40,962 nt of DNA from an uncultured Clostridia bacterium. GTDB lineage: Bacteria > Bacillota > Clostridia > Oscillospirales > Oscillospiraceae. How positions within the stretch are numbered: position 1 is the stretch's first letter; the number at the start of each line of letters is the position of its first letter. Positions 2,089-28,595 of the stretch are shown here, piece after piece. The stretch is taken from NCBI GenBank assembly GCA_946411545.1, contig CAMKEK010000001.1:1-40962 (forward strand), in the 5' to 3' direction. A program made the translations under genes and the position numbers. The notes beneath the pieces are model-generated. The model was not told the origin of the DNA, searched no databases, and saw only the letters and a program-made list of their open reading frames with translations.

Positions 2089-2121
2089 TCTCGATTTGTG
2101 TTTCTCCCCCTTGGGATCTCC

Positions 2122-2145
2122 GTAGGGGCGGATATCATCCGCCCG
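2122..2145 (-). repeat. family-1 hairpin element, variant stem (GTAGGGGCGGATATCATCCGCCCG), intergenic
   Basis: Same GTAGGGGC head; perfect stem GGGCGGAT/ATCCGCCC. Confidence 0.8.
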
Positions 2146-2159
2146 CCTTCGTCTAAACC

Positions 2160-2186
2160 GTAGGGGCCGACGCCCTCGGCGGCCCG
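2160..2186 (-). repeat. family-1 hairpin element, subtype A, intergenic
   Basis: GTAGGGGCCGACGCCCTCGGCGGCCCG; 27/27 identical to the copies at 7787 and 21817. Confidence 0.9.
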
Positions 2187-2202: not shown

Positions 2203-2233
2203 CTGAAAACTGAAATCTGAAATCTGAAAACTA
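2203..2233. repeat. heptad repeat (CTGAAAA/CTGAAAT x4) abutting the stop codon of the giant gene
   Basis: ctgaaaactgaaatctgaaatctgaaaacta; TGA at 2204, 2211, 2218 and 2225 covers all three plus-strand frames. Confidence 0.85.
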
Positions 2234-8200: not shown

Positions 8201-11200
8201 GGTGTCCCTGTCCAGCTTCGCCAGCACCAGCTCGCCCAGGCTCTTCCCCTGATACTCGCTCAGATGCGTCAGCAGAAAGTCCGTCAGCTCCCGGTACTGG
8301 GCTGCGCCCTGATCCTGGATGAAGTGGGTCAGCTCGTGGGCAGCCGTCCGGATGATGGCCACCTGGCTCAGACTCCGGCTGCTGTAGGCCCCGGCGTTCA
8401 CATCCAGGAAGATGCCCTCCCCGCTGCGATAGCCGCCGTTGGCCCCCTGGAACCGGCCCTTGCTGTCCTTGCGGCTCTGGTAGAAGTGTACGTTCACCCC
8501 GCTGATCTCCGCCAGCATGGTCACCGCCTTGATCTGCTTCTTCTGTCGCCGCGTCAGCTTCGACTGGTCCACCGCGTCATACCGCACGCCGTTCATCACA
8601 GCCCCGTCATAGCTCACCGTGCCCTTGGCTCTGGGCCCCCGCGTTCCTGTCGCCGCAGCGACAGATGAGGCTCCCGCCGCAGTGGTGCCCACTCCCACGG
8701 TAACGCCCGCCGCCTCCACCGAGGCGGCGTTTTTTTGCGCCGTCTGGGCAACTTCCGCCCCCGTCTGTACGGTCTCCCCCGTGTAGGGGCCGGCGCCCTC
8801 GACGATCCGCCCGCTCTCCGGCGCCGAATTCTGAATTCCGGCCTCCGCATTGGCCGCGCTCCGTCCCTGCTCCACCGCAAGGCGCAGCTGATCCTCCGTC
8901 AGGCTCTCCAGCAGGATCGGGCTCCGCTCTATGATCTGCTCCACCGTAAGGCTGGTGCGCTTGCCGTAAAGCTTTTCCGCCTGCTCCCAGGCCGCGGCAT
9001 AGGCCTCGATGTTCTGCCCGCTCTCATAGGCCGTAAAGGCCAGCGGCGCGCTCTCGCCCAGCCGCTCCCGCAGCGTGTTGCCAAGCTTCCGCACCGCCTC
9101 CGGCAGCCGCTCGTCCTCCGCGTCCAGCACCTGGGTGCCCGTCTCTGTGTGCACCTCCACGCTGCCGTCTGCCCGCATGACGCCGATGCTGCCCGCCTGG
9201 CCTTCCTCCAGCGTCACGCTCTCGTTCTTGTCCGCCGCCGTCACGTCCTCGGTTGCGGTGTCCTCCGTCTCCCCGGCTGTGGCATTGTCCGCCGTTCCGG
9301 TTCCCGCGTCGGTGACCATCCGGCTCTCCCCGGCATACAGACCGTCGCCCAGACGCACGGTGCCCATGTTCTCGGCCCAGGCGCTGCTGTGGGTTTCGTT
9401 CAGGATGTTGTCCGGGCTCATCTCCTCCAGCACCCGCCGGCCGTACTTGCTCTCGCCCAGGATGCGCTGCCCGTCAGGCCCCAGCAGCTTCCCGCTCTTG
9501 AAGTCCTCGACGGCCTTGTCCGCCGCCCGGTCGCTGGTGGCCTCCCGGATCCGGTTCCACATCTCCTGCGCCGCGTTGGTGATCAGCCTGGCCAGGTTCC
9601 CGGCATTCTCTCCCTCGCCAAGCTCCGTCAGCCGCTCCTCCACCGCCGCGTTCATGGTCTCCTGGTCCGCCTCGGTGATGGCCGCGTCCAGCTTTGCCGC
9701 GCCGAAGCCCCGCAGCGCCTTCCCGCTGTTCTGATACCCCTGCGCCATCTGATAGGCCGCGCTGTCCTCCGGCAGCATCGCCGCCTCGTTGAAAAGGGTC
9801 TCCGCCGTCTCGCTGTCCACGGTGCTCACGCCCTGGACCGCCTGCTGCCCGCCGGCGCCGAAGATGCCGCCCACGGCCTCGCTCACGAAGTCCCAGGCCA
9901 TGTCCTCCATGGTCTCCTTGGAAGCTTGCTGTTCCGCCTGCTCCGGGCTCATGGTCACGCTGTACTCCGTCACCTTCTGGTTGTATTCGCTCTGCCGTCC
10001 GTTGACCCACTCGTCCGCGGCAAAGCCCATGAAGGAGCTGAACAGGCCCTCCGCGCCCTCGAACATGCCCTGAATCCCCGTGTTCTTCAGGAACTCCCCG
10101 ATGTTCTTCGGCGCGCCGGTCTTCAGCAGGTGATCCAGCGGCAGATACTCGCTCCCGGTCTCCGCCGCCCAGCAGAAGGCGGCATACAGCAGCGCCTGGC
10201 CATAGTCGCCCGTCCGGGCCAGTGCCTCGTCATAGCCGCTCTCTGCCGCGCCGCCGCCCATCATGATGGCCGTCATCGCCGCGCCCAGCACATGGCCCCA
10301 GCCCAGGCTCTGCAGCGTGCTGTTGCCGATCTGGTAAAGGTCGCCCAGACCCCGGTCCTTGCCGAAGAAGCGGATGGTGCCCAGGTCGTTCAATGCCTCG
10401 GCGGATCCGCCCGCGATGGCGTTGGCCGCCTCAAAGCCGTTGGCGTAATCCCGCTCCGTGACGTAGCCCTTCTCCGCGTACTCCGCGGCGTCCAGCAGGA
10501 AGTATACCCCCGCGATGGGCATGCCCAGCACGCTTGCGATGCTGCCCGCAGCGCCGCCCCAGGCGCTGGTGTTGCCCCAGTCCTGATACTCCTGCAGCTC
10601 TGCGTTCTTCTTCTGGTGGGCAATGGAATTGTTCACACTGCGGGCAAAGGCAAAGGCCTTCTCCTTGGCGTCCTCTCCCTCCTGTCCGTACAGATAGCCG
10701 AAGATCTCCTGCTGCTCCTGGGTCCACTCCTCCGTCGGCCCGTTCTCGTCATAGTCCAGCCGGTTCCGTTCGTAGAAGCTGCTTGCGTCCTCTCTGTTCG
10801 CCGCCTCCGACCACGACTCCTCCATCCAGCCCTCAACCTTCTCCTGCCGGTCCATCAGATCCTGGCTGTAGGCGTTCATGCCCGCTGTGGCCGCCGCCGC
10901 AAACTCCGTGTCCTCCGGATCCGTCGCCCGCACATACAGGTCGCTGTACCGCTGGGCCCCGGAGAACTGCTCATACAGATACGCCCGGGTATAGTCCTCC
11001 TGGGCTGCCGCCGCCTCCTCACGCACCGGCGCCGCCGCAGCATCCCGGTTCTCCTGAGCCGCCTGATACTCCTGCCACTGCTCTGCCGTGATCAGGCCAA
11101 ACTCCTGCGCCTTCTCCCAGCCGTGCTCGGTCAGGCGGCCTTCCTCGTCCGTCAGCTCCGTATCGTCCCAGAACAGATCGGTCAGCGTATCGGCGATTGC

Positions 11201-12046
11201 CTTCTCCTCCGCGTTCAGGCCCTGCTCCCAAACCGTGGCGATCTTGTCCGCCCTGGAGTCCTCCAGCGCCTTCTCCGCCGCCTGCTGCCGCTCATAGGCC
11301 GCGTCCGCCGCTGCCGCGTTCTGCTCCGCCCATTCCTCCATGCTCATGCCGCCCACCCGGGCGTTGGCCATGTCCAGGGAATAGTCCTGATAGGCCTCCC
11401 AGGCCTCCTTGCTTCCGAAGTCCTCGATGCCCTGCAGAACGTAGTCCAGTCCGCCCCGTCCGGCATCCGTGCCGAAGGGTCCCGGCATGCTGCCCCAGCC
11501 TTCCTCCGCCGGCCGGTAAAAGCCCGGCAGCACCGGCGCCGCCGTCTGCGTCCCGCCGGCTGTCACACCCTCAATGTCTTCCCCTGTAGGGGATGGCGTC
11601 CTCGACGTCCCGTCGCCGGGCAGGCTGCTCTCCCCCCAGCTCCATTCGTCCTCCTCGTCCTCGTCCTTCTTCCTCGCTGTGGTGTCCACGGCCCCCACGC
11701 CAAGGCCCATGGCCGCAAGCCGCGCCGTATAATCGCTGAACCAGTCCTTCCGCGTCCCGCCCGTCTCCGGGTTCTGCCCCGCAAGGCCGCTCAGCGTTCC
11801 GAAGTCCAGCCCCGTCACATACCGTCCGCTGTAGTCATTCCCCACCACCCGCGGCCCCGTCTGCCGGGAAGTATTCGATCTGTTCCCGGTAATGTTGCCC
11901 ATGATGATTTCAAACGCGCTTCTCGGTTCCTCGCTCTGGCTCCCGCCGTTTGAGGCCCCATAGGTTTTCTCGCTGCTGGAACCGCTGGAGCTGCTGGAAC
12001 TCCCGCCCCCGTTGATGTTGTTCATGATCCGCTCAAATTTGCTCAT
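2231..12046 (-). CDS. giant multi-domain virion protein (~3270 aa), polyvalent-protein-like, with an HExxH metallopeptidase module, hydrophobic segments and a long coiled coil
   Basis: Single uninterrupted ORF. I prefer the ATG at 12046 (GGAAGGAGACGGGC upstream) over the ORF-track ATG at 12064. HELTH lies at 8324..8338. The gene occupies the slot after the portal where MuF/gp7-type minor head proteins usually sit. Confidence 0.8.
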   Translation of the reverse strand: MSKFERIMNNINGGGSSSSSSGSSSEKTYGASNGGSQSEEPRSAFEIIMGNITGNRSNTSRQTGPRVVGNDYSGRYVTGLDFGTLSGLAGQNPETGGTRKDWFSDYTARLAAMGLGVGAVDTTARKKDEDEEDEWSWGESSLPGDGTSRTPSPTGEDIEGVTAGGTQTAAPVLPGFYRPAEEGWGSMPGPFGTDAGRGGLDYVLQGIEDFGSKEAWEAYQDYSLDMANARVGGMSMEEWAEQNAAAADAAYERQQAAEKALEDSRADKIATVWEQGLNAEEKAIADTLTDLFWDDTELTDEEGRLTEHGWEKAQEFGLITAEQWQEYQAAQENRDAAAAPVREEAAAAQEDYTRAYLYEQFSGAQRYSDLYVRATDPEDTEFAAAATAGMNAYSQDLMDRQEKVEGWMEESWSEAANREDASSFYERNRLDYDENGPTEEWTQEQQEIFGYLYGQEGEDAKEKAFAFARSVNNSIAHQKKNAELQEYQDWGNTSAWGGAAGSIASVLGMPIAGVYFLLDAAEYAEKGYVTERDYANGFEAANAIAGGSAEALNDLGTIRFFGKDRGLGDLYQIGNSTLQSLGWGHVLGAAMTAIMMGGGAAESGYDEALARTGDYGQALLYAAFCWAAETGSEYLPLDHLLKTGAPKNIGEFLKNTGIQGMFEGAEGLFSSFMGFAADEWVNGRQSEYNQKVTEYSVTMSPEQAEQQASKETMEDMAWDFVSEAVGGIFGAGGQQAVQGVSTVDSETAETLFNEAAMLPEDSAAYQMAQGYQNSGKALRGFGAAKLDAAITEADQETMNAAVEERLTELGEGENAGNLARLITNAAQEMWNRIREATSDRAADKAVEDFKSGKLLGPDGQRILGESKYGRRVLEEMSPDNILNETHSSAWAENMGTVRLGDGLYAGESRMVTDAGTGTADNATAGETEDTATEDVTAADKNESVTLEEGQAGSIGVMRADGSVEVHTETGTQVLDAEDERLPEAVRKLGNTLRERLGESAPLAFTAYESGQNIEAYAAAWEQAEKLYGKRTSLTVEQIIERSPILLESLTEDQLRLAVEQGRSAANAEAGIQNSAPESGRIVEGAGPYTGETVQTGAEVAQTAQKNAASVEAAGVTVGVGTTAAGASSVAAATGTRGPRAKGTVSYDGAVMNGVRYDAVDQSKLTRRQKKQIKAVTMLAEISGVNVHFYQSRKDSKGRFQGANGGYRSGEGIFLDVNAGAYSSRSLSQVAIIRTAAHELTHFIQDQGAAQYRELTDFLLTHLSEYQGKSLGELVLAKLDRDTTGKLSYDAAIDEVVCDGCEMMLRRTTVAESLAQDNPGLFNSIRRWLRRWAARIADAFEGVEAFHEEAKAMEGYLDELQDIWDRAFVAAARNGANAESGVRNAESSTSSAAAGDTSSALRAPSPQGEGNERAAEGVGPYEGDETQLEEREIYNPIRERYAKLGLDDLSRRLGDHFPLSANFEQTMRNDITPLVLEPVHARSVVRGRRSLYAAGRAAFRKAYGKRTTVDIQQLDITAYLNEDIVSESIANRLNTDPDFDYQATLDIIPHLKEIFKNSILLNVERVHTDNKYKALYGYRLYNLYKYTTTRDGEQVTEIRAMVGTIVQNADGSARSYAFRDIENVTLGQGFNPASGSTRSPSGDSYNVSQLYSAVKNIPRAEGGLLYTSQSDESKLFTYTERDDGTLYQERDAAPTDRELLMEAAETPRAGLDVQEYARKVRSMERAQEKLERRRAALEALERENSELENGLAAETGEPAAESVGPYTEEAKAQAEKLRGEIEKLEAQIERAEKALKKAEQTPALKRTAERALAAWREANPEQAARNMRALREENKALQEYVEYYRREARRTEPGQATLLPEDVRRMAKALLKQTDSQADAAEIAAQLQALGDFMVQNQQGGGVGFFNELRRQAVTLARHILENSWYTEDERAELRRDLREYLRNHRIGTEQFGSDIPDFADFRKRNFGTLSFSRDGMSMDQLYQDLRGTFGEELFPEDAMAPSDQLYEVLGVLQSLEPQDFRMFEGYRLRDASEELGNEIIDRLLSGEVGVKETMADRNYQRAMERLEQKYAAKDRARQQQLNDAEDQMKWERARRDDLQERLREEKRLRNQLAREKAYELRQRSVQREQEYRARVRVAKARERLAKILQENSSKKHVPEVWKQALSEFLLSIDALSPRAQEKYRKQYIQQMQELQNILAKAALAQERGELPASGVQLDLLPFMDEMIQPFVERARKGEAWSIYQMDLEQLQSLEEILTAFSEAIRKADTLLADENGRSVAEAASGSIRDLEKVQGRSSTRGDKLRRILAWDNATPFYAFKRFGSGGQQIFRELRRGWGKMAMNMQQVIEYAEKAYSSQEVQAWEKEVHSFELRRRLQDIAAEENDGGETRETETVTVTTAQLMGLYCLMKREQARGHLLGAGIRVANYRQGRSEVVQSENYLLDLETVAEMVDSLTERQKEVADALQKYMNTQGSDWGNEISMARWGIRSFTEENYYPIKTDSRSRDARSPDADRANLYRLVTMGFTKNTVRNANNAIVLDSIFDTFANHMADMAKYNALGLPLVDAMRWYNYRDISESSEDGQYTTESVQKTLERVYGKEAGSYFITFLQDLNGNNEGGRGEETLKDLMSRAKVAAISFNLRVALQQPTSIMRASMVIDAQYLARGAAMKGGREKALKYSGLAVWKDLGYFDTNINPGIRRQIKHDVDRRSWLTDKGTKLAEWGDQATWGALWNACEIEQREKTKLRGEELMRATAERFDEVILSTQVMDGTICRSQNMRSKSMMMAEFTAFKAEPTLTYNMLLDVASEASLAKRSGNRNALRAAGRKAAKAAAVYTATAAATAMFAAIADAFRDDDDYRSFLQKWWEAARKNFGGNLDPTQLVPVIGDVVNMLRGEDKDLMVLGSVKKVYEVFRIWKETVKLANGSLEKATEATWYGNMTLWGKIFKTLQMLDQFAGIGIAPAAREVTSLYNTLIAPAAGWQKAKTYDAGEERELQYAFADGFLDEEQTKKLLLEKGIAHTEAEASRTIFEWRNGGAYKELKEAALANDEAAYREAMQALTAAGYTEKNARSQVRGAIKDQYQGNGMSGAKLSKEQAAGMLEKYCAMDKDEARATVQEWTCYVVTGIAFDKIKTEVNEGGIDRKRAVELLVTYGGLDKETAGNKVDYWEFLYDNEEYAEAFPQMSNYVKYRDETAPAGIDVKTWYSCYMGTKDLKADVDENGKTIDGSKRDKVLAFIDSMPLSNAQKDALYYAKGYAQSTIGKAPWHRK
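6752..6778 (-). repeat. family-1 hairpin element in frame in the giant gene (PAAESVGPY)
   Basis: GTAGGGGCCGACGCTCTCGGCGGCCGG. Confidence 0.85.
7787..7813 (-). repeat. family-1 hairpin element in frame in the giant gene (RAAEGVGPY)
   Basis: GTAGGGGCCGACGCCCTCGGCGGCCCG. Confidence 0.9.
7825..7868 (-). repeat. family-2 element (GGGGAAGGTG-hairpin-GGATGAGG) in frame in the giant gene (APSPQGEG)
   Basis: ccccttgaggggaaggtgcccgaagggcggatgaggtgtccccc; related to 18351..18390 and 25784..25828. Confidence 0.6.
8783..8809 (-). repeat. family-1 hairpin element in frame in the giant gene (GRIVEGAGPY)
   Basis: GTAGGGGCCGGCGCCCTCGACGATCCG. Confidence 0.8.
11586..11612 (-). repeat. family-1 hairpin element, diverged, in frame in the giant gene (GTSRTPSPT)
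   Basis: GTAGGGGATGGCGTCCTCGACGTCCCG. Confidence 0.7.
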
Positions 12047-12109
12047 GCCCGTCTCCTTCCGCATTGTCCCGATATGCCGCAGGGGCGGGGTCTTGCCCCG
12101 CCCGCTTTC

Positions 12110-13294
12110 TTACTTTGCCTTTTCTTTTTGATAGGCTTCCTCTGTTTTCGGCCCCCAAACGCCGTCCAGCTTGATGTTATAGCCTTTATCGATTAGAGCC
12201 TGCTGAGCTGCCAGCACTTCGGAACGCCTCAACCCAGCTCCGCTCAACTTCGGATACGTCTCATACCCGTTGTCCGCTGCCCCGCCGCCGGCCGCGGCGG
12301 CCTGCTGGGCGGCCCGCAGGCTGTCGTAATACTTCTTCATGGCGTTGTACTGGGCCCGGGTCAGTCCCGCCGCCTGGATCTCGTCCTCCGTGGCGGAATA
12401 GCCGATCTGGATCAGGCCGTTGAGCTTGTTCAGCGCGTCCTGCTGCCGCTGATACTCCCGCTCCTCCAGGCTGTCGGCATAGCTGCGCTCGGTCAGGAAA
12501 CGGTTGTAGTCGTCCACATAGCGGTTGTAGTCGGTGCTGTCCTTGTCCAGCAGCATCTGATACTCCCGCAGCAGCCGGTCCCCCTGGTCCTGATACTGCT
12601 GGTATGCCCGGTCGTACAGCTCCGGCACCCGCTCGTTCAGCTGCTGCAGGTACGCGTCGTACTGCTGCTGCCCCACCGCCTGGCCGTAGGTGCTTCCGTA
12701 GCCGCCGGTGAGGGAGGAGGCCTGCCCCATGCTGTCCCGCATGGCCATGCGCCCCTGATTGACGTACTGGTCCCGGTACTGCTGATACAGCGCGTCCGCA
12801 TCCAGGTCATAGGTGAAGTTGCCACGGCCCGTGATTTGGTTGTAAATCTCGTTGATCTGGTCGTCATAGCGGCCCACATAGCTGGGCGGATTCAGTCCCG
12901 CCTCGTTCAGCGCCGCCATGGTCCGCTCATAGATGCCCCTTGTGGCGGCCTCCTGATCCTCAAGGGACGGCACCTCGGCCAGCTGTCGGCTCACCGTGGT
13001 CTGCCCGCTGCTGCCCGTCCCCGGGATCTCGATCTCCATGGGCATCGGCTCCCCGCTGATGGTTCCGCCGTGTCCCGCAGGCCGCGTGGCCGCCGGTGCA
13101 GGCTCCGTGGGCGGTGCTGCGGGCGGCGTCTTCGGCGGCGCCGGCTCCGTCGGGGCCGACGGTACCACGTCCGAGGGGATATAGGTTCCCGGTGCCGGTG
13201 CGCCCGGATCATACCCGGCCTGCGCGTCGATTGTTGCCGGGTCGATTACGGCCGGCTTTCTGCCGCCCAGGCCCGTGTCTTTCTCAAATGCCAT
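12110..13294 (-). CDS. Pro-rich / Tyr-Gln-rich protein with C-terminal peptidoglycan-binding (PG_binding_1-like) domain; probable virion or ejection-associated protein
   Basis: C-terminus reads LAAQQALIDKGYNIKLDGVWGPKTEEAYQ; located between the Prp-like gene and the giant gene. Confidence 0.6.
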   Translation of the reverse strand: MAFEKDTGLGGRKPAVIDPATIDAQAGYDPGAPAPGTYIPSDVVPSAPTEPAPPKTPPAAPPTEPAPAATRPAGHGGTISGEPMPMEIEIPGTGSSGQTTVSRQLAEVPSLEDQEAATRGIYERTMAALNEAGLNPPSYVGRYDDQINEIYNQITGRGNFTYDLDADALYQQYRDQYVNQGRMAMRDSMGQASSLTGGYGSTYGQAVGQQQYDAYLQQLNERVPELYDRAYQQYQDQGDRLLREYQMLLDKDSTDYNRYVDDYNRFLTERSYADSLEEREYQRQQDALNKLNGLIQIGYSATEDEIQAAGLTRAQYNAMKKYYDSLRAAQQAAAAGGGAADNGYETYPKLSGAGLRRSEVLAAQQALIDKGYNIKLDGVWGPKTEEAYQKEKAK

Positions 13295-13658
13295 CGCTCA
13301 ATCCTCCAATCTCCACCCGGACATGCTCCGGGTACTGCTCCGCCAGCGCCAGCCAGCCCTCCGTCACCGTCCATATCATGCTCCGGCAGGCCCGCATCCG
13401 ATCCATTTCACCGGCAAGGCTCTCCGGCGCTCCCGCCTCCAGCATTCTCTGCGCCGTCGCCATCTCCGGAAAACAGATCTCCACCTCTGCCTCCGTGCCG
13501 ATCCGCACCCGGCCGTCAAACTCTCCCGCTCTGGCAAGCATGGCGTTGGTCAGCGCGGTGATCCCCGCGCACACCAGGTCCTGTCCCTTCTCGCCTGCGC
13601 CCGCGTGTCCCTGCAGCCGGATTCGCATCCTGCCCATGTCAACCCGTATCGTCGTCAT
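13284..13658 (-). CDS. prp: Prp-like cysteine protease (ribosomal-processing protease family, DUF464-like)
   Basis: LQGHAGAGEKGQDLVCAGITALTNAM matches the His...Cys signature GHA...G.D.VCA..S.L of Prp; about 124 aa; sits in the head module. Confidence 0.7.
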   Translation of the reverse strand: MTTIRVDMGRMRIRLQGHAGAGEKGQDLVCAGITALTNAMLARAGEFDGRVRIGTEAEVEICFPEMATAQRMLEAGAPESLAGEMDRMRACRSMIWTVTEGWLALAEQYPEHVRVEIGGLSDGI

Positions 13659-13670
13659 TCAGATCCCCTC

Positions 13671-15887
13671 TCAGTCCGGCTGGCTGGCCCGCGCCGCCCG
13701 CTCCCGGGCCTTGCGCACATGGGTGGCCTCTCCCGCGTTTCCGGTGGCGGCGGCCTCCTGCGTGGGCATCGCCGCCTGCCCGGAGCTGGGGAACGCGCCT
13801 CCCGCCATGGCAGCGCCTCCCGTGATTGCCTGGGCAAGCCCCGGCACCAGGTCCGGCCGGTACTGCTGGGCCAGCGTCAGCGCCATCTGCTGGAACTGCA
13901 CCAGCTTCTGATACATGTCCGCGTTCATCGCGATCCGCTGCGCCACCTTGTCCTTGCCTTCAAACTCCATCATGTCCAGCACCGCCATGGCCATGTCCCC
14001 GTTCTGGGGGCTGAAGAAGCCCGCTCCGTATAGCTGCATGGCCAGCTCGTTCTGGGCAAGCTTGGTGTAGGGGTTGCGCTTCTGGGGCTCGATCTTGATA
14101 TCGAACACCGGCAGCCGGAACCCCATGTCCACGCTGCCCATCATGCCCTGCCACTGGGGCTGCAGTCCCTGGTTGGAGTACCGGGTAAACTCATCGCTGC
14201 CGTCGCGCCCCGTGATGCGGAAGGTGCGCGGCATGTCATAGAACTGCCTCACCAGCTCGATCACCTGATCCACCAGCTCCGCGAAGGCCCGATAGCTGGC
14301 CTTGGCGCTGTCCCGGCTTCCCTTGCCGCTGGCTTCCTGCAGCGCCGCGATGGCGGAGGCCGCCGTGGCCCCGCTGGTGGAGATGCCGTTGGCCGTCTCC
14401 GTGTTGCCTGTGGTCTCCCGCAGCTCGCTGATGGTCTGCTCCAGGACGTTGATGTAGTTGCCGTGCAGGCTGTTCACCTCCACCCGGCGCAGGCTGTCCT
14501 CGCCCAGGTTGCCGCTGACGTGCACCAGCGCCTTGTGCAGGTCCAGAAACTCCTCCTCGTTCACCGCGCCGTCGCTGCGGGCGAAGTAACGCGGTGTGGC
14601 CCCGGCCATGGTGTTCTTGATGAAGGCGGTCTTCATCAGGTCCACCTGGGTCTGCTCGTTGGCCGCCAGATCCACGAAGCCATAGCCGCAGGGGCTCCCC
14701 TCCACAGGGAACAGCACGTCAAACACAAAGGGATACTTCCCGTGCTCGTAAAGTCCCCGGCTGGAATTGGTCGCACGGAATCCGGAATTCGGAAGCGCAG
14801 GCACAGCGCCCGGCATACCCGGCGCACCCACACCCGGTCCCGCTCCCATGCCCGGCACAGCGCCTGCAGGGGCCGGCGTCCTCGGCGGCCCGCCCTCTGG
14901 TTCCCGCAGCCCGGCGGCGCCTGGTATGCCTCCCATGCCCGGCACAGCGCCTGTAGGGGCCGGCGTCCTCGACGGCCCGCCCCCGGTATCCCCCAACCCG
15001 GCAGCGCCCATGCCCGGTCCTTCTCCGTAGGGGCCGACGCCCCCGGCGGCCCGTCCTCCCGGCACAGCGCCCGGCATCCTCGTGTCCTGTCCGGTCTGCT
15101 CCGTGGCGTACAGCACCACATCCCCCACGAACTGGCAGTAATGCAGCACCCGTCTGCCGCCCTCGAAGCGGTGGTAGTAGTGGTTGATCACCGTGAACTG
15201 GTTGTCCGTGGGCACCTGATCGTCATACAGGAACTTGGTGGCCTGGAAGGCGTCCGGCTTCAGCCGCCCCCGCAGCTGGGGATACTGCTCGATCAGCGTG
15301 TCCCCGTCCTCCAGGTAGGTGTAGAACAGGTGCCGGCTGTCCTGGATGTCCGCCACGCCCGGCTCCCAGAACAGGTTCAGAAGGTTCACGGTCTGGATGC
15401 TGATGTCCCCCAGCCCGTTCAGCTTTGACTTGTCCCAGGTGATCATGTATACGCCCGTGCCGGTCTTCAGCTTCTGCCACATGGCCCGGTCATAGGTGTG
15501 TTCAAAGCGGTTCTGCTCCAGGATGCAGGGGATCACGGCTGACAGCATCCTGGCCTCCTGCTGGTCTCCCTTCTCTCTGGGCAGGATGTTGGGCTCCGGA
15601 TAGGCCTCCATGGCGTCCGCGTGCTTGGAGGCGATCACGTTGTGCAGCCACCCGCTCTTGGCGTTGAACTCCGCCGGGTCCAGCTCGCTGACCTTGGCCT
15701 CCTCCATCTCGTTGCGCAGCTTCCACCAGTTTTCCGCGTTCTGCACCCGGCGCTCCAGCCGCGCCTTGCCGGTCTTGTACTTCTGCAGAATCCGCATCCA
15801 GTCCCGCAGGGTCTCCTTGGTGATGGGGCCCTTCCGGTCCTCCTCCGCACGCCATCCCGGCGCCTGCTCGTTGATAATCTGATCCAT
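13671..15887 (-). CDS. portal protein carrying a ~100-aa Gly/Pro/Ala-rich insertion
   Basis: Immediately downstream of terL; size; ATG at 15887 preceded by GAGGAGGAG (MDQIINEQ...). The ORF-track start at 15905 is less likely. Confidence 0.8.
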   Translation of the reverse strand: MDQIINEQAPGWRAEEDRKGPITKETLRDWMRILQKYKTGKARLERRVQNAENWWKLRNEMEEAKVSELDPAEFNAKSGWLHNVIASKHADAMEAYPEPNILPREKGDQQEARMLSAVIPCILEQNRFEHTYDRAMWQKLKTGTGVYMITWDKSKLNGLGDISIQTVNLLNLFWEPGVADIQDSRHLFYTYLEDGDTLIEQYPQLRGRLKPDAFQATKFLYDDQVPTDNQFTVINHYYHRFEGGRRVLHYCQFVGDVVLYATEQTGQDTRMPGAVPGGRAAGGVGPYGEGPGMGAAGLGDTGGGPSRTPAPTGAVPGMGGIPGAAGLREPEGGPPRTPAPAGAVPGMGAGPGVGAPGMPGAVPALPNSGFRATNSSRGLYEHGKYPFVFDVLFPVEGSPCGYGFVDLAANEQTQVDLMKTAFIKNTMAGATPRYFARSDGAVNEEEFLDLHKALVHVSGNLGEDSLRRVEVNSLHGNYINVLEQTISELRETTGNTETANGISTSGATAASAIAALQEASGKGSRDSAKASYRAFAELVDQVIELVRQFYDMPRTFRITGRDGSDEFTRYSNQGLQPQWQGMMGSVDMGFRLPVFDIKIEPQKRNPYTKLAQNELAMQLYGAGFFSPQNGDMAMAVLDMMEFEGKDKVAQRIAMNADMYQKLVQFQQMALTLAQQYRPDLVPGLAQAITGGAAMAGGAFPSSGQAAMPTQEAAATGNAGEATHVRKARERAARASQPD
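14866..14892 (-). repeat. family-1 hairpin element in frame in the portal gene (GPPRTPAPA)
   Basis: GCAGGGGCCGGCGTCCTCGGCGGCCCG. Confidence 0.8.
14953..14979 (-). repeat. family-1 hairpin element, subtype B, in frame in the portal gene (GPSRTPAPT)
   Basis: GTAGGGGCCGGCGTCCTCGACGGCCCG; 27/27 identical to the copy at 24348. Confidence 0.9.
15027..15053 (-). repeat. family-1 hairpin element in frame in the portal gene (RAAGGVGPY)
   Basis: GTAGGGGCCGACGCCCCCGGCGGCCCG. Confidence 0.85.
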
Positions 15888-15897
15888 AGCTCCTCCT

Positions 15898-15914
15898 CTA
15901 AGCACTAAGCACTA
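15898..15914. repeat. heptad stop repeat (CTAAGCA x2 + CTA) between terL and portal
   Basis: Minus strand TAGTGCTTAGTGCTTAG has TAG in all three frames. The first TAG is the terL stop, and the repeat runs straight into the portal RBS GAGGAGG. Confidence 0.85.
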
Positions 15915-17354
15915 CTCCCTGACATACATATCCAGCGGGTCAAAGAAAATCTTCTGCTCTCGTTTTTCCACAGGCCGCAGCGGCGTCACCGGCCTCGACA
16001 TACACAGATACCGCCACTCGTCCGCCACGTGGTCCTCCAGCTTCGTGTCCAGGTCCTCCGGCATCGTCGCGCTGTACATCATCTCCGGGATAGTCCGCAG
16101 GAAGGCCGCGCAGCTGCGGAACACATACATCCGCGGATACCCGCTCTCGTCGAACTGCAGCCGGTAGTGGCACTGCATCCAGCCGGGAATCCGCTGGTTG
16201 TCTCCCGGCGTGAAATAGATGCCGTACCGGGCCGCCGTCTCGGCCACGCTCTCGCCCCGGCTGGCGTCCCAGATGCTGGGGTCCGCCACGCCCTCAATGT
16301 GCCGGCCCTTCAGCCACGGATGCTCCCGCTCGATCCTGGAAATCTCCCGAAACTGCATGTCCGGGCTCCAGCGCAGCCCCTCGTTTGGCGTTCCGTTGCA
16401 GCCGTACAGCTCCAGAATCCGGTACAGCACGCCCTCATAGTCCACCGCCCACCAGGCGCAGCTGAAGGGCTTGCCGTATCCGAAGTCGTAAGAGCGCAGG
16501 ATCGTCCAGCCCCGCCGTTCCCCGCTTGCCAGGTCGAATGGCTCGATGACGTGGGTATATCGTCTCTGCTGCCGCAGCGTCTCCGGATCCTCGTCCGCCC
16601 CGGCCACATGTGCCGCCTGCAGGTCCGGCTCTATGTGGAAATCCTCGAAGAACTGCCCCTCGAAGATGTCCCAGCGCCCCTCCAGCCAGGCGGCCCGCAG
16701 CTTGGGCGGCAGCGCCTGCAGCTGCTGCAGATAGTCCGGGTTGGAGCGCATCAGCGCCTTGTTGTCCGTCACCAGCGCCTTGATGAAGGTGTAGTCCTCC
16801 GGTCTCTCGTCCGCCCGGAACTGCCGGTCGATGAACAGCCGCTTGACCCAGCTGTGCCCCGGCCCGCCCGGGTTCATGGTGTAATAGATCCGTTTGGGAA
16901 AGTCGTTGGCGCCGCGGACGATGGCCTTCAGCCGGTCCATCCGCTCCTCCGTCTGGTGGGTGGCCTCGTCGATGAACAGCACGTCCACCTCTGTGCCCTG
17001 AAAGCGCATGGCGTCCCGGTCGTTCTCGCAGTACCGGAACAGCAGCCTGCTGCCGTTTGGGAAGCTGATGGTCTTTTTCTGGTCGTTGTACCGGGCGATC
17101 CGCTGCCGCCGGTCCTGGTCATACACCCGCAGCATCTCGCACAGCGGCACAATGTGGTTTTCCTGCAGCTCCGGATAGCTCTGACGCACGATCATCACCT
17201 TGATCCCCGGATACTTCAGGCACAGCTGTGCAGCCTTCACCCGCACGGCCCAGCTCTTCCCGCCGCCTCGTGCCCCACCGTAGCCGATATACTTGTGCCG
17301 GTCCGTCAGGAAGAGCATCTGCTTCGGGCTCGGCCTCGGTATAAGCAGTTCCAT
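15912..17354 (-). CDS. terL: terminase large subunit
   Basis: Walker A GYGGARGGGKSW, Walker B VLFIDEATH, C-terminal nuclease-type EDHVADEWRYL. ATG at 17354 with GGAGG upstream, just after the terS stop. Confidence 0.9.
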   Translation of the reverse strand: MELLIPRPSPKQMLFLTDRHKYIGYGGARGGGKSWAVRVKAAQLCLKYPGIKVMIVRQSYPELQENHIVPLCEMLRVYDQDRRQRIARYNDQKKTISFPNGSRLLFRYCENDRDAMRFQGTEVDVLFIDEATHQTEERMDRLKAIVRGANDFPKRIYYTMNPGGPGHSWVKRLFIDRQFRADERPEDYTFIKALVTDNKALMRSNPDYLQQLQALPPKLRAAWLEGRWDIFEGQFFEDFHIEPDLQAAHVAGADEDPETLRQQRRYTHVIEPFDLASGERRGWTILRSYDFGYGKPFSCAWWAVDYEGVLYRILELYGCNGTPNEGLRWSPDMQFREISRIEREHPWLKGRHIEGVADPSIWDASRGESVAETAARYGIYFTPGDNQRIPGWMQCHYRLQFDESGYPRMYVFRSCAAFLRTIPEMMYSATMPEDLDTKLEDHVADEWRYLCMSRPVTPLRPVEKREQKIFFDPLDMYVRE

Positions 17355-17355
17355 A

Positions 17356-17952
17356 TCAGGCCTCCGCCCCGTCCGTATCCACGAAGCGCACCTCAATGGT
17401 GCCGCCGCCCGCGTCCTCGGCTTTCTGCCGGCGTCGGATCTCGTCGCCCTCCAGCCTCAGCTTCCGCAGCCGCTCCTTCGCCAGCTTCTGTCCCAGCTCC
17501 TGGGCCGGTGTGTTGATGCCGTAGAAGTCCCGCAGCAGGCCCGCAAGGGCGGTGATCACCGCCGCCATGTCCTTCATAGCCCTGGTGTCCCGCTTCTCGA
17601 AGGTCCGCTCCGTGGTCTCGCTCATGCCCTCTCCGCAGCCCTCCGTCACCACATAGCGCTGAAACTGCATCTCATCGGCCAGGGCGGCCACCGCGCTGTC
17701 CAGCAGCTGCTCCGTCCCGCTCATCAGGGTTTCCAATCGCGCGCGTCCGCGCTCGCGCGCCGCGTCAAGGGCACTCGTTGCCACCTCGGCCCGGAATTGT
17801 TTCCGTTTCTCGGCCCAGCCTCCGGCCGCCGCGGCCTTGCTCAGCGTGGAATAGCTGATCTTTTTCCGCTTGGCAAGCTCCCGCAGGCTCATGTCCCCCG
17901 CGATGTACTGCGCCTCGATCTTTGTCCAGTCCGTCATGCTCTCATCTCCCAC
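17356..17952 (-). CDS. terS: terminase small subunit (HTH type)
   Basis: N-terminal HTH (MSLRELAKRKKISYSTLSKAA), small size, directly upstream of terL. Start is either GTG at 17952 or ATG at 17937. Confidence 0.75.
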   Translation of the reverse strand: MGDESMTDWTKIEAQYIAGDMSLRELAKRKKISYSTLSKAAAAGGWAEKRKQFRAEVATSALDAARERGRARLETLMSGTEQLLDSAVAALADEMQFQRYVVTEGCGEGMSETTERTFEKRDTRAMKDMAAVITALAGLLRDFYGINTPAQELGQKLAKERLRKLRLEGDEIRRRQKAEDAGGGTIEVRFVDTDGAEA

Positions 17953-17968: not shown

Positions 17969-18005
17969 CAGTTTACCGTCTCCGTGTCCCGTTTCTCTAG
18001 GCCGC
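17969..18005 (-). promoter_or_regulatory. 37-nt conserved box, copy 2 (identical to 2019..2055), immediately upstream of terS
   Basis: 37/37 identity; preceded in the minus sense by a terminator and T6. Confidence 0.6.
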
Positions 18006-18037
18006 GAAAAAAGGACAGCGGCTTCTGGCCGCTGCCC
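18006..18037 (-). terminator. intrinsic terminator (minus sense) separating the early region from the packaging operon
   Basis: Minus strand GGGCAGCGGC-CAGAA-GCCGCTGTCC followed by T6. Confidence 0.75.
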
Positions 18038-19336: not shown

Positions 19337-19353
19337 CAAACTCACGCTGCCCT

Positions 19354-19377
19354 CTAAGCTCTAAGCACTGAAAACTG
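19354..19377. repeat. heptad stop repeat (CTAAGCT CTAAGCA CTGAAAA)
   Basis: TAA at 19355, TAA at 19362 and TGA at 19369 cover all three plus-strand frames; related to 26665..26688. Confidence 0.8.
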
Positions 19378-19612: not shown

Positions 19613-19779
19613 CCCTGTTTCCCTTTCTGTACATGGTACTGGTCCAGCACGATCTTCCGGCCGCACTGCTGGCAGGTCTCTGCCTTCTTTGTGGTGGTCT
19701 TTCCCAGCTTCTTCATTCGGTATCCGCCCACCCGGTAATCCTCCGCACATGCCTCACAAAGCGTCAGGATCGTGTTCAC
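19609..19779 (-). CDS. small zinc-ribbon protein A (56 aa), paralogue of B
   Basis: GGAGG, then 7 nt, then GTG; VNTILTLCEACAED...CQQCG. Confidence 0.55.
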   Translation of the reverse strand: MNTILTLCEACAEDYRVGGYRMKKLGKTTTKKAETCQQCGRKIVLDQYHVQKGKQG

Positions 19780-20213
19780 GCTCTCACCTCCACGCAGTTT
19801 TCTCCCGTAGGGGCCGTCGTCATCGACTGCCCGTATGAGATGGGGGAGACGGGGCCTGCGTTGGAGATGTGCAAGTCGTCCCCGCCGAAGCGCTCCCACA
19901 GTCTCCGGTTGTTCTCCTCCATCACCTGCATCACGCCCCGCAGCGTATTGAGAGTCGCCTCCTTCTCCTCGATCTCCTTCTCCAGTTCCTCAACCAGATC
20001 CTCGTCCCGCCGGTGCTGCCGGCGCAGGTTCCGGTTCTCCTCCTGCAGCGTCTCGATGGCGATGGCCTGATAGGTGTCCCGCTCGTTCAGCTGCTGAAAC
20101 CGGTCCTCCTGATCCTCCCGCAGGGCCTTTGCCGCCGCCGCGGTTCCCCGGGCGCTGCGCAGCTCCCGCTCCGCCTTCATCGCTCTCTTCTTCCAGTAAT
20201 GGTCAAAAATCAT
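19776..20213 (-). CDS. coiled-coil protein (145 aa), function unknown
   Basis: AAAGGAG 8 nt upstream of the ATG at 20213; heptad-rich charged sequence. The C-terminal 20 aa are encoded by a family-1 element. Confidence 0.6.
   Translation of the reverse strand: MIFDHYWKKRAMKAERELRSARGTAAAAKALREDQEDRFQQLNERDTYQAIAIETLQEENRNLRRQHRRDEDLVEELEKEIEEKEATLNTLRGVMQVMEENNRRLWERFGGDDLHISNAGPVSPISYGQSMTTAPTGENCVEVRA
19807..19833 (-). repeat. family-1 hairpin element, diverged, forming the 3' end of the coiled-coil gene
   Basis: GTAGGGGCCGTCGTCATCGACTGCCCG. Confidence 0.65.
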
Positions 20214-20227
20214 ATTCAATACTCCTT

Positions 20228-20437
20228 TCAGTGGTGAATCATCCCCCGGCCGCTCACCAGCTGCCGGTGTCTCTCGTTCTTCCTTGCCCGGATCGCCAGC
20301 ACCGCCATGGGCATGCCGTCCCGGTGCGCAAGCATCCGGCATTCCTCCGACGCAGCCTTCCATGCCGCGTAATCGCCGCAGCCTCCGTGGCAGCCCGTCT
20401 CCCGCTTCCCGCATCCGAAGCATGGTGCGGTTTTCAA
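20228..20437 (-). CDS. small Cys-rich protein (about 69 aa, TTG start), function unknown
   Basis: High third-position GC in this frame; CFGCGKRETGCHGGCGDY. The start is inferred only from its overlap with the upstream stop codon. Confidence 0.4.
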   Translation of the reverse strand: MKTAPCFGCGKRETGCHGGCGDYAAWKAASEECRMLAHRDGMPMAVLAIRARKNERHRQLVSGRGMIHH

Positions 20438-21064: not shown

Positions 21065-21253
21065 TTATCCGTCATTCACGCCGAAGCGCTGAATATACTT
21101 CTCCACGTCCTGCACCATGCGCCTGGCCTGCATCAGCAGGAAGGCCAGGTTCCCCCGCGCCTTCCCGCTGCTGTCCGTCTGGTCTTTCTCCAGCGCCGTC
21201 AGGATCTCCGCCGCCCGTTCCAGCTCTCTCAGGTACTGCTCCGCGCTTTTCAT
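21065..21253 (-). CDS. small helical protein (62 aa)
   Basis: ATGA overlap with the upstream gene; coding-like composition. Confidence 0.5.
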   Translation of the reverse strand: MKSAEQYLRELERAAEILTALEKDQTDSSGKARGNLAFLLMQARRMVQDVEKYIQRFGVNDG

Positions 21254-22299
21254 GTCTGGATCCCCACCCAGGGCGCCAGAATGGTTTTCAGCGCCCCGGC
21301 CAGCTTCGCGCCCGTCTCCGGGTCCTGCAGCTTCACCGCTTCCAGGCTGTCCCGCAGCGCTGCCAGCTCCCGCTGCACCGCCTTGAAGTGGAAGCCGAAC
21401 TCCGCAATGTCCTTGTTGGAGGCGGCCAGCTGTTTCCGTGCCTGTTCCAGCTCATTCCGGGCCGCCGCAGCCGTCAGCTCCGCCTCCCGCAGCTTTTCTG
21501 CGGTCTCTTCCCCGGCCTTTTCCGCCTTCTCCTTCTCCTTCTGCGCGGCGCGAAGCAGCTTGTCCTTCTCCTGCTCTGCCTTCTCCAGGTCCTTCTGCGC
21601 GACCTCCAGCCGCTTTTTCCAGGCCTCGTCCGCCTCTGCTCGGGCGGCGCTCGCCGCCTCCCGGATGGCCTCTTCATCCCGCTCAACGGCAACCGTCTGC
21701 GGCCTGGTCTCCAGCTCCCGGATGGTGTCCCGCGCAAGCCGCAGCTGCTTCTCCGCCTGCTCCAGCTCTTGCCTGGCCTCCTCCGCAGCCTTTTCCGCCT
21801 CGGCAGCCTGCGTTCTGTAGGGGCCGACGCCCTCGGCGGCCCGCTTCGCCTCCGCCTCCGCCGCGGCCTTCTCCTCCTTCAGCTTCCGGATCTCCTCCTT
21901 CAGCTCCTTCTCGCTCAGGCTCTCCGCGTCCACGCTCTCCGCGAACTCCTCCCGGTCACTTTCCGGCACGGAAAGCAGCAGCAAAGCCTTGGAAATCGGC
22001 AAATCCGAAATATATTTCGCATTTGTCTCCGGCCCGAAGAGCCCCAGCTGATCCGCCCCGTACTCACGGAAAATGCGCATGTAGTTCTGGGCGTGCCGGT
22101 CGGAGAAGGTCGTCTCCCTCTCCAGCCAGCCCAGCCATTCCCCGTGGCCCACCAGCTCCTTGGCCTCGCACAGCCGCCGCCCGATCTCGATCCCGCACAG
22201 CATCGTCACCCGCCGCCCGGTCTCCCAGATCATCCGGATCTCCGCCGCCACCGTCTCCGCCGTCCGTTCTCCCTGCCTTGTGGAAAGCTCTTCGTTCAT
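21250..22299 (-). CDS. DUF3102-like protein with long C-terminal coiled coil
   Basis: N-terminus reads IEIGRRLCEAKELVGHGEWLGWLERETTFSDRHAQNYMRIF, the pattern I associate with DUF3102. Confidence 0.6.
   Translation of the reverse strand: MNEELSTRQGERTAETVAAEIRMIWETGRRVTMLCGIEIGRRLCEAKELVGHGEWLGWLERETTFSDRHAQNYMRIFREYGADQLGLFGPETNAKYISDLPISKALLLLSVPESDREEFAESVDAESLSEKELKEEIRKLKEEKAAAEAEAKRAAEGVGPYRTQAAEAEKAAEEARQELEQAEKQLRLARDTIRELETRPQTVAVERDEEAIREAASAARAEADEAWKKRLEVAQKDLEKAEQEKDKLLRAAQKEKEKAEKAGEETAEKLREAELTAAAARNELEQARKQLAASNKDIAEFGFHFKAVQRELAALRDSLEAVKLQDPETGAKLAGALKTILAPWVGIQT
21817..21843 (-). repeat. family-1 hairpin element in frame in the DUF3102-like gene (RAAEGVGPY)
   Basis: GTAGGGGCCGACGCCCTCGGCGGCCCG. 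Confidence 0.9.
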
Positions 22300-24296: not shown

Positions 24297-24685
24297 AGGA
24301 AGTCCTCCAGATCGAAGATCTTCGTCGCCTCCGCAGGGCCTTCTCCTGTAGGGGCCGGCGTCCTCGACGGCCCGTCCTCTTCGTTGACGTTCCCCTCTGT
24401 GATCTCCATCCGGAAGCGCACGTCCGCGCCCTTCCAGTAATACCGTACAGCTCGCTTGAAGGCCTCAAGGTCGCTGATGCTTCCGCCCACGCCCTTGGCC
24501 ACTGTCTTCATACATTCCTCAAAGCTCCGGCCCTCCAGAACCTTCCGGCAAAAGCGATCGCTTTGGCGGCAGAACTCCGTCAGCGCTGCCAGCACCGCCT
24601 CCTTCATGGCCTCTTCCTTCTGGCCGAACTTCCCGGCCCCGCATTCCCGCCGCAGCTTCTCAGCGGCTTCCTCACAGCTGCTCAC
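24293..24685 (-). CDS. PcfK-like protein
   Basis: Small acidic protein directly upstream of the PcfJ-like gene; central ECMKTVAKG...AFKRAVRYYW and a C-terminal IFDLEDFL tail; AAGGAGG plus GTG start. Confidence 0.55.
   Translation of the reverse strand: MSSCEEAAEKLRRECGAGKFGQKEEAMKEAVLAALTEFCRQSDRFCRKVLEGRSFEECMKTVAKGVGGSISDLEAFKRAVRYYWKGADVRFRMEITEGNVNEEDGPSRTPAPTGEGPAEATKIFDLEDFL
24348..24374 (-). repeat. family-1 hairpin element, subtype B, in frame in the PcfK-like gene (GPSRTPAPT)
   Basis: GTAGGGGCCGGCGTCCTCGACGGCCCG. Confidence 0.9.
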
Positions 24686-26643: not shown

Positions 26644-26664
26644 TCCCTGTACTCCTTTCGTCCT

Positions 26665-26688
26665 CTAAGCACTAAGCACTAACAACTG
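26665..26688. repeat. heptad stop repeat (CTAAGCA CTAAGCA CTAACAA) with stops in all six frames
   Basis: TAA at 26666, 26673 and 26680 on the plus strand, and TAG x3 on the minus strand. Adjacent palindrome CTGCGGCCGCAG at 26686..26697. Confidence 0.85.
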
Positions 26689-27971: not shown

Positions 27972-28595
27972 ATGACCACAGGAGATCGTATGAAATTGAG
28001 GCGAAAAGAGCTGGGCCTTTCCGCCGAATACGTTGCGGAGAAGCTTGGTGTTTCTCCTGCGACCATATACCGCTATGAAAAAGGTGATATAGAAAAAATG
28101 CCCGGCAACATACTCGCGCCGATCGCTCGGATTCTCAGTACCACGCCCGCCTATCTGATGGGCTGGGATACTGAGGACTCCCCCGCGCCGCCGCCCGGCT
28201 TCCAGGCCATGCCGGCCATGGCCGCTGCCACGCCCCTCATCGGGGACATCGCCTGCGGCACGCCCATCCTGGCGGAGGAGAACATCTCCCGCTATCTCCC
28301 CACGCCCCTCCACTGGCATGCCGACTTCGCCCTCCTCTGCCGCGGCGACTCCATGGCCCCCCGCATCCTGGACGGCGACCTGGTGGCCATCCGCAAGGTG
28401 CCCCAGGTGGAAAACGGTCAGATCGCCGCCGTTCGCATCGACGACGAGGCCACCCTCAAGCGCTGCTATCGCTATCCCGACCGGCTGGTCCTCCAGGCGG
28501 AGAACCCCGCCTACGAGCCCATCGTCCTCATCGGCCCGGAAATGTCCCGCGCCACCATAGAAGGCATAGCCGTCGGCTTCATGCGCAACCTCTGA
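27972..28595 (+). CDS. LexA/cI-type repressor (XRE HTH plus S24 peptidase domain)
   Basis: HTH LGLSAEYVAEKLGVSPATIYRYEKG; S24 motifs CRGDSMAP and ATLKR; GAGGTG RBS. Confidence 0.9.
   Translation: MTTGDRMKLRRKELGLSAEYVAEKLGVSPATIYRYEKGDIEKMPGNILAPIARILSTTPAYLMGWDTEDSPAPPPGFQAMPAMAAATPLIGDIACGTPILAEENISRYLPTPLHWHADFALLCRGDSMAPRILDGDLVAIRKVPQVENGQIAAVRIDDEATLKRCYRYPDRLVLQAENPAYEPIVLIGPEMSRATIEGIAVGFMRNL

Follow-up and report, generated by a model that had tools for sequence, protein, structure and literature searches.

A portal gene with an expanded loop

The window, by which we mean the whole stretch of DNA analysed here, is a contig of 40,962 bp with ~64% GC from an uncultured Clostridia bacterium (CAMKEK010000001.1). 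It carries a phage portal gene with a long insertion, and this insertion contains three copies of a short GC-rich hairpin element (family 1) that recurs across the window (Table 1). The portal protein matched the Pfam families P22_portal (PF16510) and SU10_portal (PF23899) with E-values of 1e-29 and 2e-11, respectively, and PHROG 156, a portal family. A Foldseek search with its structural model returned the portals of Pan3, SU10, GP4, N4 and P22 with a probability of 1.0; the best match was Pan3 (9vyf, 1e-13), followed by SU10, GP4, KHP30, N4 and P22, which are podophage portals. An original prediction, made from the DNA letters and a list of open reading frames (ORFs), had taken the protein for an SPP1-type portal with an insertion of ~100 residues. 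The peptide quoted there is indeed present in the minus-strand ORF at 13671-15905, and Pfam and fold assign the protein to the P22/SU10 type instead.

We found ~8,000 portal homologues, typically of 608 to 670 residues, and tabulated the loop length in the best 120 of them. In the alignments, the insertion lies between the invariant E269 (…LYATE) and L385/Y386 (GLYEHGKYPFVFD…). The corresponding loop had 5 to 31 residues in 117 of the best 120 homologues, with 5 to 11 in most of them (P0003 is one homologue free of the insert), and the exceptions had 52 (P0027), 88 (P0002) and 115 residues (the window). All three long loops contain hairpin elements. The loop site is thus naturally variable, and the window portal is its extreme case. 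The predicted size was about right (~110 extra residues), whereas the view that the ORF is ordinary on either side of the segment has to be modified, as the homologous site is itself a variable loop.

The loop also differs in composition, with Gly, Pro and Ala making up 62% of its residues compared to 22% in the remaining protein, and with a GC content of 75.7% compared to 64.4% elsewhere. All three sense frames of the insert are open, and the lack of stops in it therefore carries no evidential weight. Its length is divisible by three, and the reading frame is unbroken. Compared with the closest relative, a portal gene on a contig from ENA (L081, encoding P0002), the dN/dS was 0.11 upstream of the insert (264 codons) and 0.19 downstream (360 codons), or 0.15 for the flanks together, at a dS of 0.39. 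This purifying selection on both flanking halves indicates that they are maintained as one functional gene. The tryptic peptides expected from the loop are AAGGVGPYGEGPGMGAAGLGDTGGGPSR, TPAPTGAVPGMGGIPGAAGLR and EPEGGPPR.

An AlphaFold2 (AF2) model of the portal was built with 55 homologues and had a mean predicted local distance difference test (pLDDT) score of 60. Residues 272-381 showed a pLDDT of ~30 and no secondary structure at all, so that the insert is predicted to be disordered, in agreement with the disordered loop first proposed. Before the insert, the model has a three-stranded sheet (236-267). After it comes a conserved segment, GKYPFVFD…EGSPCGYG, and then a helix (417-433), a small alpha/beta region and a second helix (481-498), followed by the invariant GNTE…AASAIAALQEASGKGS stretch, a long helix (511-555) and the C-terminal helices. 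This order of helices and strands agrees with the canonical portal, in which wing, stem and clip are followed by stem, tunnel loop, wing helix and crown. It would place the insert in the N-terminal part of the wing, ~33 residues ahead of the first stem helix. Homologue alignment and structure prediction, which had been suggested as a way to locate the insertion, thus pointed to a wing loop. A mapping onto P22 residue by residue did not succeed: the hhalign match to P22 gp1 covered only 23 columns, with a probability of 1%, and a sequence search of the PDB gave only a weak match to the Pan3 portal, with the loop outside its coverage. The wing placement therefore rests on the AF2 topology.

Within the loop, the three hairpin units are each ~28 nt long with a GTAG-headed GC hairpin, and they are spaced by 87 and 74 nt. 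The elements predicted at 14866, 14953 and 15027 with these same spacings were recovered, with cores at 14865/6, 14952/3 and 15026/7. Unit 1 is alone in one frame, and units 2 and 3 are both in another, which matches the predicted reading of one copy as GVGPY and two as RTPAP(T/A). The accompanying statement that the copies are not simple in-frame duplicates holds for unit 1 but not for the other two, which lie in an in-frame 87-nt tandem repeat of 29 codons per copy. The longest exact run common to the two 87-nt copies is ~24 nt. The flanks of the units are repeated as well, as had been noted with coordinates right within 1-2 nt: a linker, GGCACAGCGCC, occurs at 14800, 14854, 14941 and 15061, all within the insert, and was found nowhere else in the window or in the fetched loci. 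The 22-nt repeats that bound the insert are 261 nt apart, or 3 x 87. Only 30-39-nt cores match other loci, and the linkers are private to the window insert. The hairpins account for ~81 of the 345 nt and the remainder is local linker repeat, so that the insert is mostly linker and not, as first described, built from three hairpins. A suspected third palindrome family of GAATTC type (near 14776-14794 and 8823-8841) was not significant.

When gappy columns are left aside, the portal of L081 and the window protein share 92% identity, and the flanks share 88% at the DNA level. L081 has a loop of 88 residues at the same position. The two loops share only the gene-proximal unit (GDAGPYG in L081, GGVGPYG in the window), after which L081 has a GGCGGAT-type GTAG hairpin (GTAGGGGCGGATATCATCCGCCCG) and a CCTTCCCC…GGGGAAGG hairpin, replacing the 87-nt duplicated units of the window. 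The loop of a more distant portal (L214, 59% identical) has a single family-1 unit, which is read in the same frame. Because homologues at 64-69% identity have no family-1 unit there, an independent insertion in L214 is the most parsimonious explanation. Furthermore, P0027 (61% identical) has a different palindrome in the same loop. Portals of other lineages thus seem to carry other hairpins at this site, most simply as independent insertions. We also sought closer relatives. The best portal in IMG/VR was 60% identical and the best in a metagenome scan 57%, leaving L081 as the only close one, and regex anchor scans for the loop recovered few of the fetched loci. The unit encoding RAAEGVGPY was also observed near the N-terminus of another portal homologue (P0014, residue 23) and of a homologue of the window's DUF3102 protein (P0123, residue 12), suggesting that disordered N-termini are another tolerated landing place.

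Since the region is repetitive and GC-rich, shares its repeats with host genomes and encodes a protein found in its exact form on one contig only, an assembly artefact was considered: the repeat could have been assembled wrongly, with copies collapsed or expanded, or two sequences could have been joined as a chimera at a repeat that host DNA also contains. We regard this as highly unlikely. The 87-nt copies are 89% identical, and their longest exact run is shorter than the k-mers with which assemblies typically finish. Both the reading frame and the conserved flanks have stayed intact. In addition, the independently assembled L081 has its insert at the same codon position and shares the first unit, and L214 and L246 have similar inserts.

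The hairpin family in the window and in other genomes

The family consensus is YGTAGGGGCCGrCGyCCTCGrCGGCCCG. Its core pattern, with up to 3 mismatches, matched seven times in the window compared to none in 100 shuffles. A looser search gave 12 family-1 copies, and a repeat search added one GGCGGAT-type variant, bringing the number to 13. All of them lie on the plus strand, and the genes there on the minus strand. The head is YGTAG in 11 copies and GCAG in two. Each copy forms an imperfect GC stem-loop of ~9 bp, with a stem of 6+2 bp, one purine-purine mismatch and a 4-nt loop. As single-stranded DNA, the 28-nt core folds with -11 to -12.6 kcal/mol (z-scores -2 to -4), and the head was unpaired in nine of ten folds; in the copy at 19806, two head bases pair with the 3' end. 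No Rfam family reached threshold anywhere in the window. The hairpins showed no T-run as in a terminator, regular spacing or positional logic, and neither a conserved terminal inverted repeat (TIR) beyond the hairpin nor a target-site duplication was found in the aligned flanks of the 13 copies or at the L214 site.

Long ORFs contain 11 of the 13 copies: four lie in an ORF of 3,277 residues, three in the portal gene, one in the DUF3102 gene and three in other ORFs. The giant ORF had no Pfam match. It also contains a second type of palindrome (CCTTCCCCTTGAGGGGAAGG, 7821-7840) that adjoins one of its family-1 hairpins. The in-frame copies of the window read …AAEGVGPY… or …GPSRTPAPTGE…, and their Arg-rich third frame is open yet unused. 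Including 11 copies in viral contigs, Arg-rich frames were used by none of the 22 in-frame copies scored, though open. This avoidance implies that the elements are translated and bears on the idea that the segment is removed before the mature protein as an intron, as an intein or by translational bypass. A possible analogy is offered by some mitochondrial systems, in which bypassing removes GC-rich hairpin elements from within genes. We give such removal almost no credence, given also the continuous frame with its multiple-of-three length, the lack of an Rfam intron family and the lack of intein-like motifs or fold in the insert.

The same frame usage would suit a functional appendage, in which selection keeps a repeat-derived loop that has been co-opted as a flexible spacer or as a surface contacting scaffold, coat, internal proteins or DNA. 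As only non-basic hairpin frames are used, the peptide matters at least negatively. The loop would also be present in twelve copies per virion in an essential machine whose gene is still under purifying selection, and repeat-free homologues often have an extended loop of up to 31 residues, indicating that length is accommodated and might be used. However, the closest relative differs largely in loop sequence and length, most homologues manage with 5 to 11 residues, the loop has no predicted fold, and the same elements occur in unrelated proteins. We therefore consider an appendage unlikely.

Outside the window, the exact 27-nt pattern was matched at least 149 times, spread over at least 120 genome-contig stretches, nearly all of them from Oscillospiraceae, Ruminococcaceae or Clostridia. 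These genomes and metagenome-assembled genomes (MAGs) come from gut and rumen, with several copies per MAG (e.g. RUG14046 and RUG180). Pseudoflavonifractor phocaeensis An507 is an example of an Oscillospiraceae genome in which the repeat is abundant. The pattern was also found in 43 stretches of IMG/VR viral contigs. The bacterial examples sit after stop codons, and some form arrays. An intergenic array (L153:233-437) alternates with the GGCGGAT-type hairpin at a period of 89 nt, the same alternation as in the window at 2121-2186; a tandem composite array (L115) has four copies with a period of 115 nt; and L142 has an inverted pair. Coding status was assessed with a codon score that required 80 open coding-like codons on both sides of a copy, with random positions from the same loci as controls. 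By this test, 3 of 127 bacterial copies (2.4%) were intragenic compared to 990 of 2400 random positions (41%), and 11 of 52 viral copies (21%) compared to 35% of random positions. The hairpin repeat is extragenic in bacterial hosts and often intragenic in phages. A longest-open-frame heuristic for coding status was dropped, as GC-rich off-frames (GRRGRRPL, RGRRPRRP) gave spurious long ORFs. The copies were co-oriented within all eight viral stretches with multiple copies, compared to mixed orientations in bacterial stretches. One viral contig of 43.7 kb (L216, L232 and L233; IMGVR_UViG_3300037400_002447) has at least eight co-oriented exact copies of the hairpin.

Table 1. Positions of the portal gene, its insert, the hairpin copies and other features in the window
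Feature	Position	Strand	Evidence or remark
Portal gene, 744 aa, P22/SU10-type	13671-15905	-	Pfam, PHROG, Foldseek
Expanded variable loop (insertion), codons 270-384, 115 aa, 345 nt	14754-15098	-	Alignments, loop-length table
Hairpin unit 1 (CGTAGGGGCCGACGCCCCCGGCGGCCCG)	15026-15053	+	Portal frame RAAGGVGPY
Hairpin unit 2 (TGTAGGGGCCGGCGTCCTCGACGGCCCG)	14952-14979	+	Portal frame GPSRTPAPT
Hairpin unit 3 (TGCAGGGGCCGGCGTCCTCGGCGGCCCG)	14865-14892	+	Head mutated to GCAG; portal frame GPPRTPAPA
87-nt tandem duplication, 1.9 copies, with units 3 and 2	14843-15008	+	Repeat search; TRF period 87, score 274; 89-90% identity
22-nt direct repeat bounding the insert, contains linker GGCACAGCGCC	14800-14821	+	Repeat search
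Partner of the 22-nt bounding repeat	15061-15082	+	91% identity
Degenerate family-1 copy, similar to that at 24347-24374	1641-1668	+	
Intergenic pair, GGCGGAT type and GGCCG type	2121-2186	+	BIME-like (bacterial interspersed mosaic element); just past the stop of the giant ORF
Giant ORF, 3,277 aa, downstream of the portal module	2231-12064	-	PHROG 22978 only (unknown function, 3,513-position profile)
Family-1 hairpin in the giant ORF	6751-6778	+	Read AAESVGPY
Other in-frame family-1 copies in the giant ORF	7786-7813, 8782-8809, 11585-11612	+	
Family-1 copy in ORF 19776-20423, similar to that at 24347-24374	19806-19833	+	
DUF3102 gene	21250-22299	-	
Family-1 hairpin in the DUF3102 gene	21816-21843	+	Read RAAEGVGPY
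Family-1 hairpin in ORF 24293-24685	24347-24374	+	Read GPSRTPAPT
Prp-like cysteine protease gene	13284-13658	-	Directly after the portal gene
Terminase	15912-17396		Upstream of the portal gene
HTH-S24 repressor	27972-28595	+	Temperate marker
Tyrosine integrase	29787-30896	+	Temperate marker
CHAP and PG-binding lysin	31745-32554	-	

Proposed origin of the insert

We favour, with a probability of about 70%, the reading that the segment is a cluster of non-autonomous palindromic repeats of the host clade, similar to repetitive extragenic palindromes (REPs), which lies in frame in a permissive wing loop of the portal, has been expanded locally and is tolerated. The loop has the look of selfish DNA that is tolerated, and not of a new domain. 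The repeat family belongs to the clade of the phage's host, the Oscillospiraceae/Ruminococcaceae. The phage, from gut or rumen, encodes an integrase and an S24 repressor and is temperate; it would reside in the chromosome where the repeats multiply, which would give them access to its genome. As a prophage is short of intergenic DNA, only copies in frame in tolerant sites such as loops, linkers and coiled coils would survive. One founding unit, shared with L081, would have entered the portal loop, and local slippage or unequal recombination would then have produced the 87-nt tandem duplication and the four private linker copies. An indel, seen as a 13-nt length difference between units, would have put one hairpin out of phase with the other two. 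The comparison with L081 and L214, the private linkers and the spacing of the bounding repeats fit this order of founding unit, local duplication and phase-shifting indel. The product is most likely translated, giving a Gly/Pro/Ala-rich disordered loop of ~115 residues on each of the 12 portal subunits that is tolerated and not needed. The obvious candidate for the transposition or recombination enzyme would be a REP-associated tyrosine transposase (RAYT) or an IS200-like Y1 transposase acting on single-stranded DNA. The original prediction had named a tolerated parasite and a functional appendage as the two options. This was an apt choice, and the 13 copies compared to none expected, the distribution of the repeat in the host clade, the disorder and the lineage-specific loop content, with a differing loop in L081 and other hairpins in other portals, favour the parasite.

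Several observations weigh against a tolerated parasite, or at least against parts of its proposed history. The exact window gene is on a single contig. There is no empty site at near-identical sequence, the nearest insert-free portals being 64-69% identical, and the insertion event is therefore deduced from the alignment. RAYTs are single-copy, and a weak motif scan that covered flanks of 8 kb found no RAYT-like ORF in the fetched loci. The 27 ORFs of the window that were scanned with Pfam showed no Y1 transposase, and no transposase was linked to the repeats. Furthermore, the RAAEGVGPY hairpin occurs in 14 of 120 DUF3102 homologues (P0123-P0202), in the same region (the coiled coil after the domain) and in the same frame. 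It is identical at 27 of 27 nt between DUF3102 genes whose proteins share only 48% identity; one such match (L327:10550-10576) lies in a prophage with an unrelated structural module of HK97 type. The nearest homologue of the window protein (P0122, 82% identical) lacks the hairpin, and a patch of ~60 residues around the window hairpin is replaced, which looks like a recombination patch. The pattern fits insertion that is recurrent and recent, or a spread by recombination, but selection at the DNA level, which a purely parasitic view fails to predict, could be its meaning as well.

In another reading, the hairpins are nucleic-acid signals exploited by the phage, as host-factor binding sites, elements of mRNA processing or stability, or recombination hot spots, with coding secondary. 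The identity of the hairpin in such divergent DUF3102 genes and the recombination-like patch that contains it speak for this reading, as do the co-orientation of all 13 window copies and that within each of the eight multi-copy viral stretches. Binding of host factors and effects on mRNA stability have also been reported for REPs (PMC3733652, PMC12306157). However, the co-orientation is explained equally well by genes on a single strand together with a TAG stop in one frame of the opposite orientation. The lack of regular spacing, of a T-run and of an Rfam match also speaks against such signals, and the RNA fold of the whole insert was no more stable than that of shuffled sequence (z = +1.6). 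We consider a primary role as nucleic-acid signals unlikely.

A related and more speculative idea is that the hairpins are site-selective or recombinogenic modules, or are under selection at the DNA level, and that, in otherwise unrelated Oscillospiraceae phages, they repeatedly remodel the same loops and linkers in proteins of the virion and of replication. It is hinted at by at least three portal lineages whose wing loop has palindromes at this site, acquired independently on the simplest view, and by the recurrence in DUF3102 proteins with its hairpin identity and replaced patch and the strict co-orientation in phages. We regard this as doubtful. If true, REP-like repeats would drive the diversification of phage protein loops and mosaicism, beyond being junk.

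Some other features of the window were observed. Its first 54 nt (1-54) are identical to its last 54 (40909-40962), and the contig is probably a circular assembly, although the identical ends also suggest terminal redundancy. All 13 hairpins are located before 24.4 kb, and the stretch from there to the contig end has none; it includes the lysogeny module (~27-35 kb), which is also of lower GC. A 24-nt motif (TCCTCTAAGCACTAAGCACTA on the plus strand) occurs at 15891-15914, 19347-19370 and 26658-26681, at or near the starts of minus-strand genes, with the first copy overlapping the start codon region of the portal gene; it may be a common translation-initiation or regulatory signal. A 43-nt direct repeat with an A-run at its end (98% identity) is found at 2019-2061, near the end of ORF 1405-2013, and at 17969-18011, near the start of ORF 17356-17952.

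Relation to known systems

If the favoured reading is correct, a disordered loop of ~115 residues, made of host-type selfish repeats, appears to be tolerated in a dodecameric machine that is essential for packaging. This would mark a permissive site in portals of the P22/SU10 type, with a possible use for display or tagging. The repeats common to both tie the phage to a host clade. For annotation, segments in proteins of this clade that are rich in Gly, Pro and Ala, or that read RAAEGVGPY or GPSRTPAPT, should be taken as repeat-derived and not as domains.

Among known systems, the window family resembles the GTAG REPs in its short length (~28 nt) and in its imperfect GC palindrome, one end of which carries an unpaired GTAG. 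Like these and BIMEs (PMC3733652, PMC12306157), it is dispersed and overwhelmingly extragenic in bacteria, and it occurs in clusters, alternating arrays and inverted pairs, with occasional in-frame copies. A survey by Di Nocera et al. (2013, PMC3733652) listed GTAG REPs for Proteobacteria, Cyanobacteria, Chloroflexi and the PVC superphylum only, and neither Firmicutes nor phages are among its entries. Unlike those surveyed, the window family is found in Clostridia and in a phage genome, where it is mostly intragenic, and would extend the GTAG-REP superfamily to Clostridia of gut and rumen. REPs and BIMEs are thought to be mobilised by RAYT/TnpA(REP) Y1 transposases (PMC3733652; Nunvar et al. 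2010, PMC2817692; Ton-Hoang et al. 2012, PMC3333891), and Group 1 RAYTs have been reported in Clostridia (PMC5581495).

Other classes of mobile or variable DNA fit less well. The family is small, non-autonomous, structured and able to land in genes, like a MITE, a miniature transposable element with inverted repeats. However, it has no TIRs beyond the single hairpin and no visible target-site duplication, and its unit is far shorter than typical MITEs. A self-splicing intron or an intein was rejected because there is no Rfam family and the insert, with 62% Gly, Pro and Ala, is structure-free. The variable region of a diversity-generating retroelement was rejected as well, as no reverse transcriptase domain was found in the 27 scanned ORFs and the units match many unrelated genomes rather than one local template. 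In our literature search, which was of limited coverage and is thus no proof of novelty, REPs were reported neither from coding genes of phages nor from Oscillospiraceae.

The closest parallels for the insert are in-frame palindromic elements of bacterial genes. Rickettsia palindromic elements (RPEs) likewise insert in frame into genes whose protein products are functional, and homologues have no such segment there. RPE-1 units measure ~100-150 bp. Unlike RPEs, which belong to an obligate intracellular bacterium, the window units are ~28 nt long, GC-rich and of unrelated sequence, and they occur in Clostridia and phages. In-frame REPs and REP clusters encoding 43-82 residues have been documented in bacteria, and the intragenic clusters of Opitutus terrae and Thauera, like the window insert, add tens of residues that are presumed to lie in loops (PMC3733652). 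In contrast to these clusters, the window case concerns a phage virion protein and a larger loop of 115 residues. With 11 of 13 copies in coding sequence, it would extend the in-frame colonisation by REPs known from the bacterial genes of Rickettsia, Opitutus and Thauera to a temperate phage. In-frame palindromic selfish DNA is thus a known class of mechanism, and what appear to be new are the setting in a phage structural gene, the clostridial GTAG family and the size of the loop.

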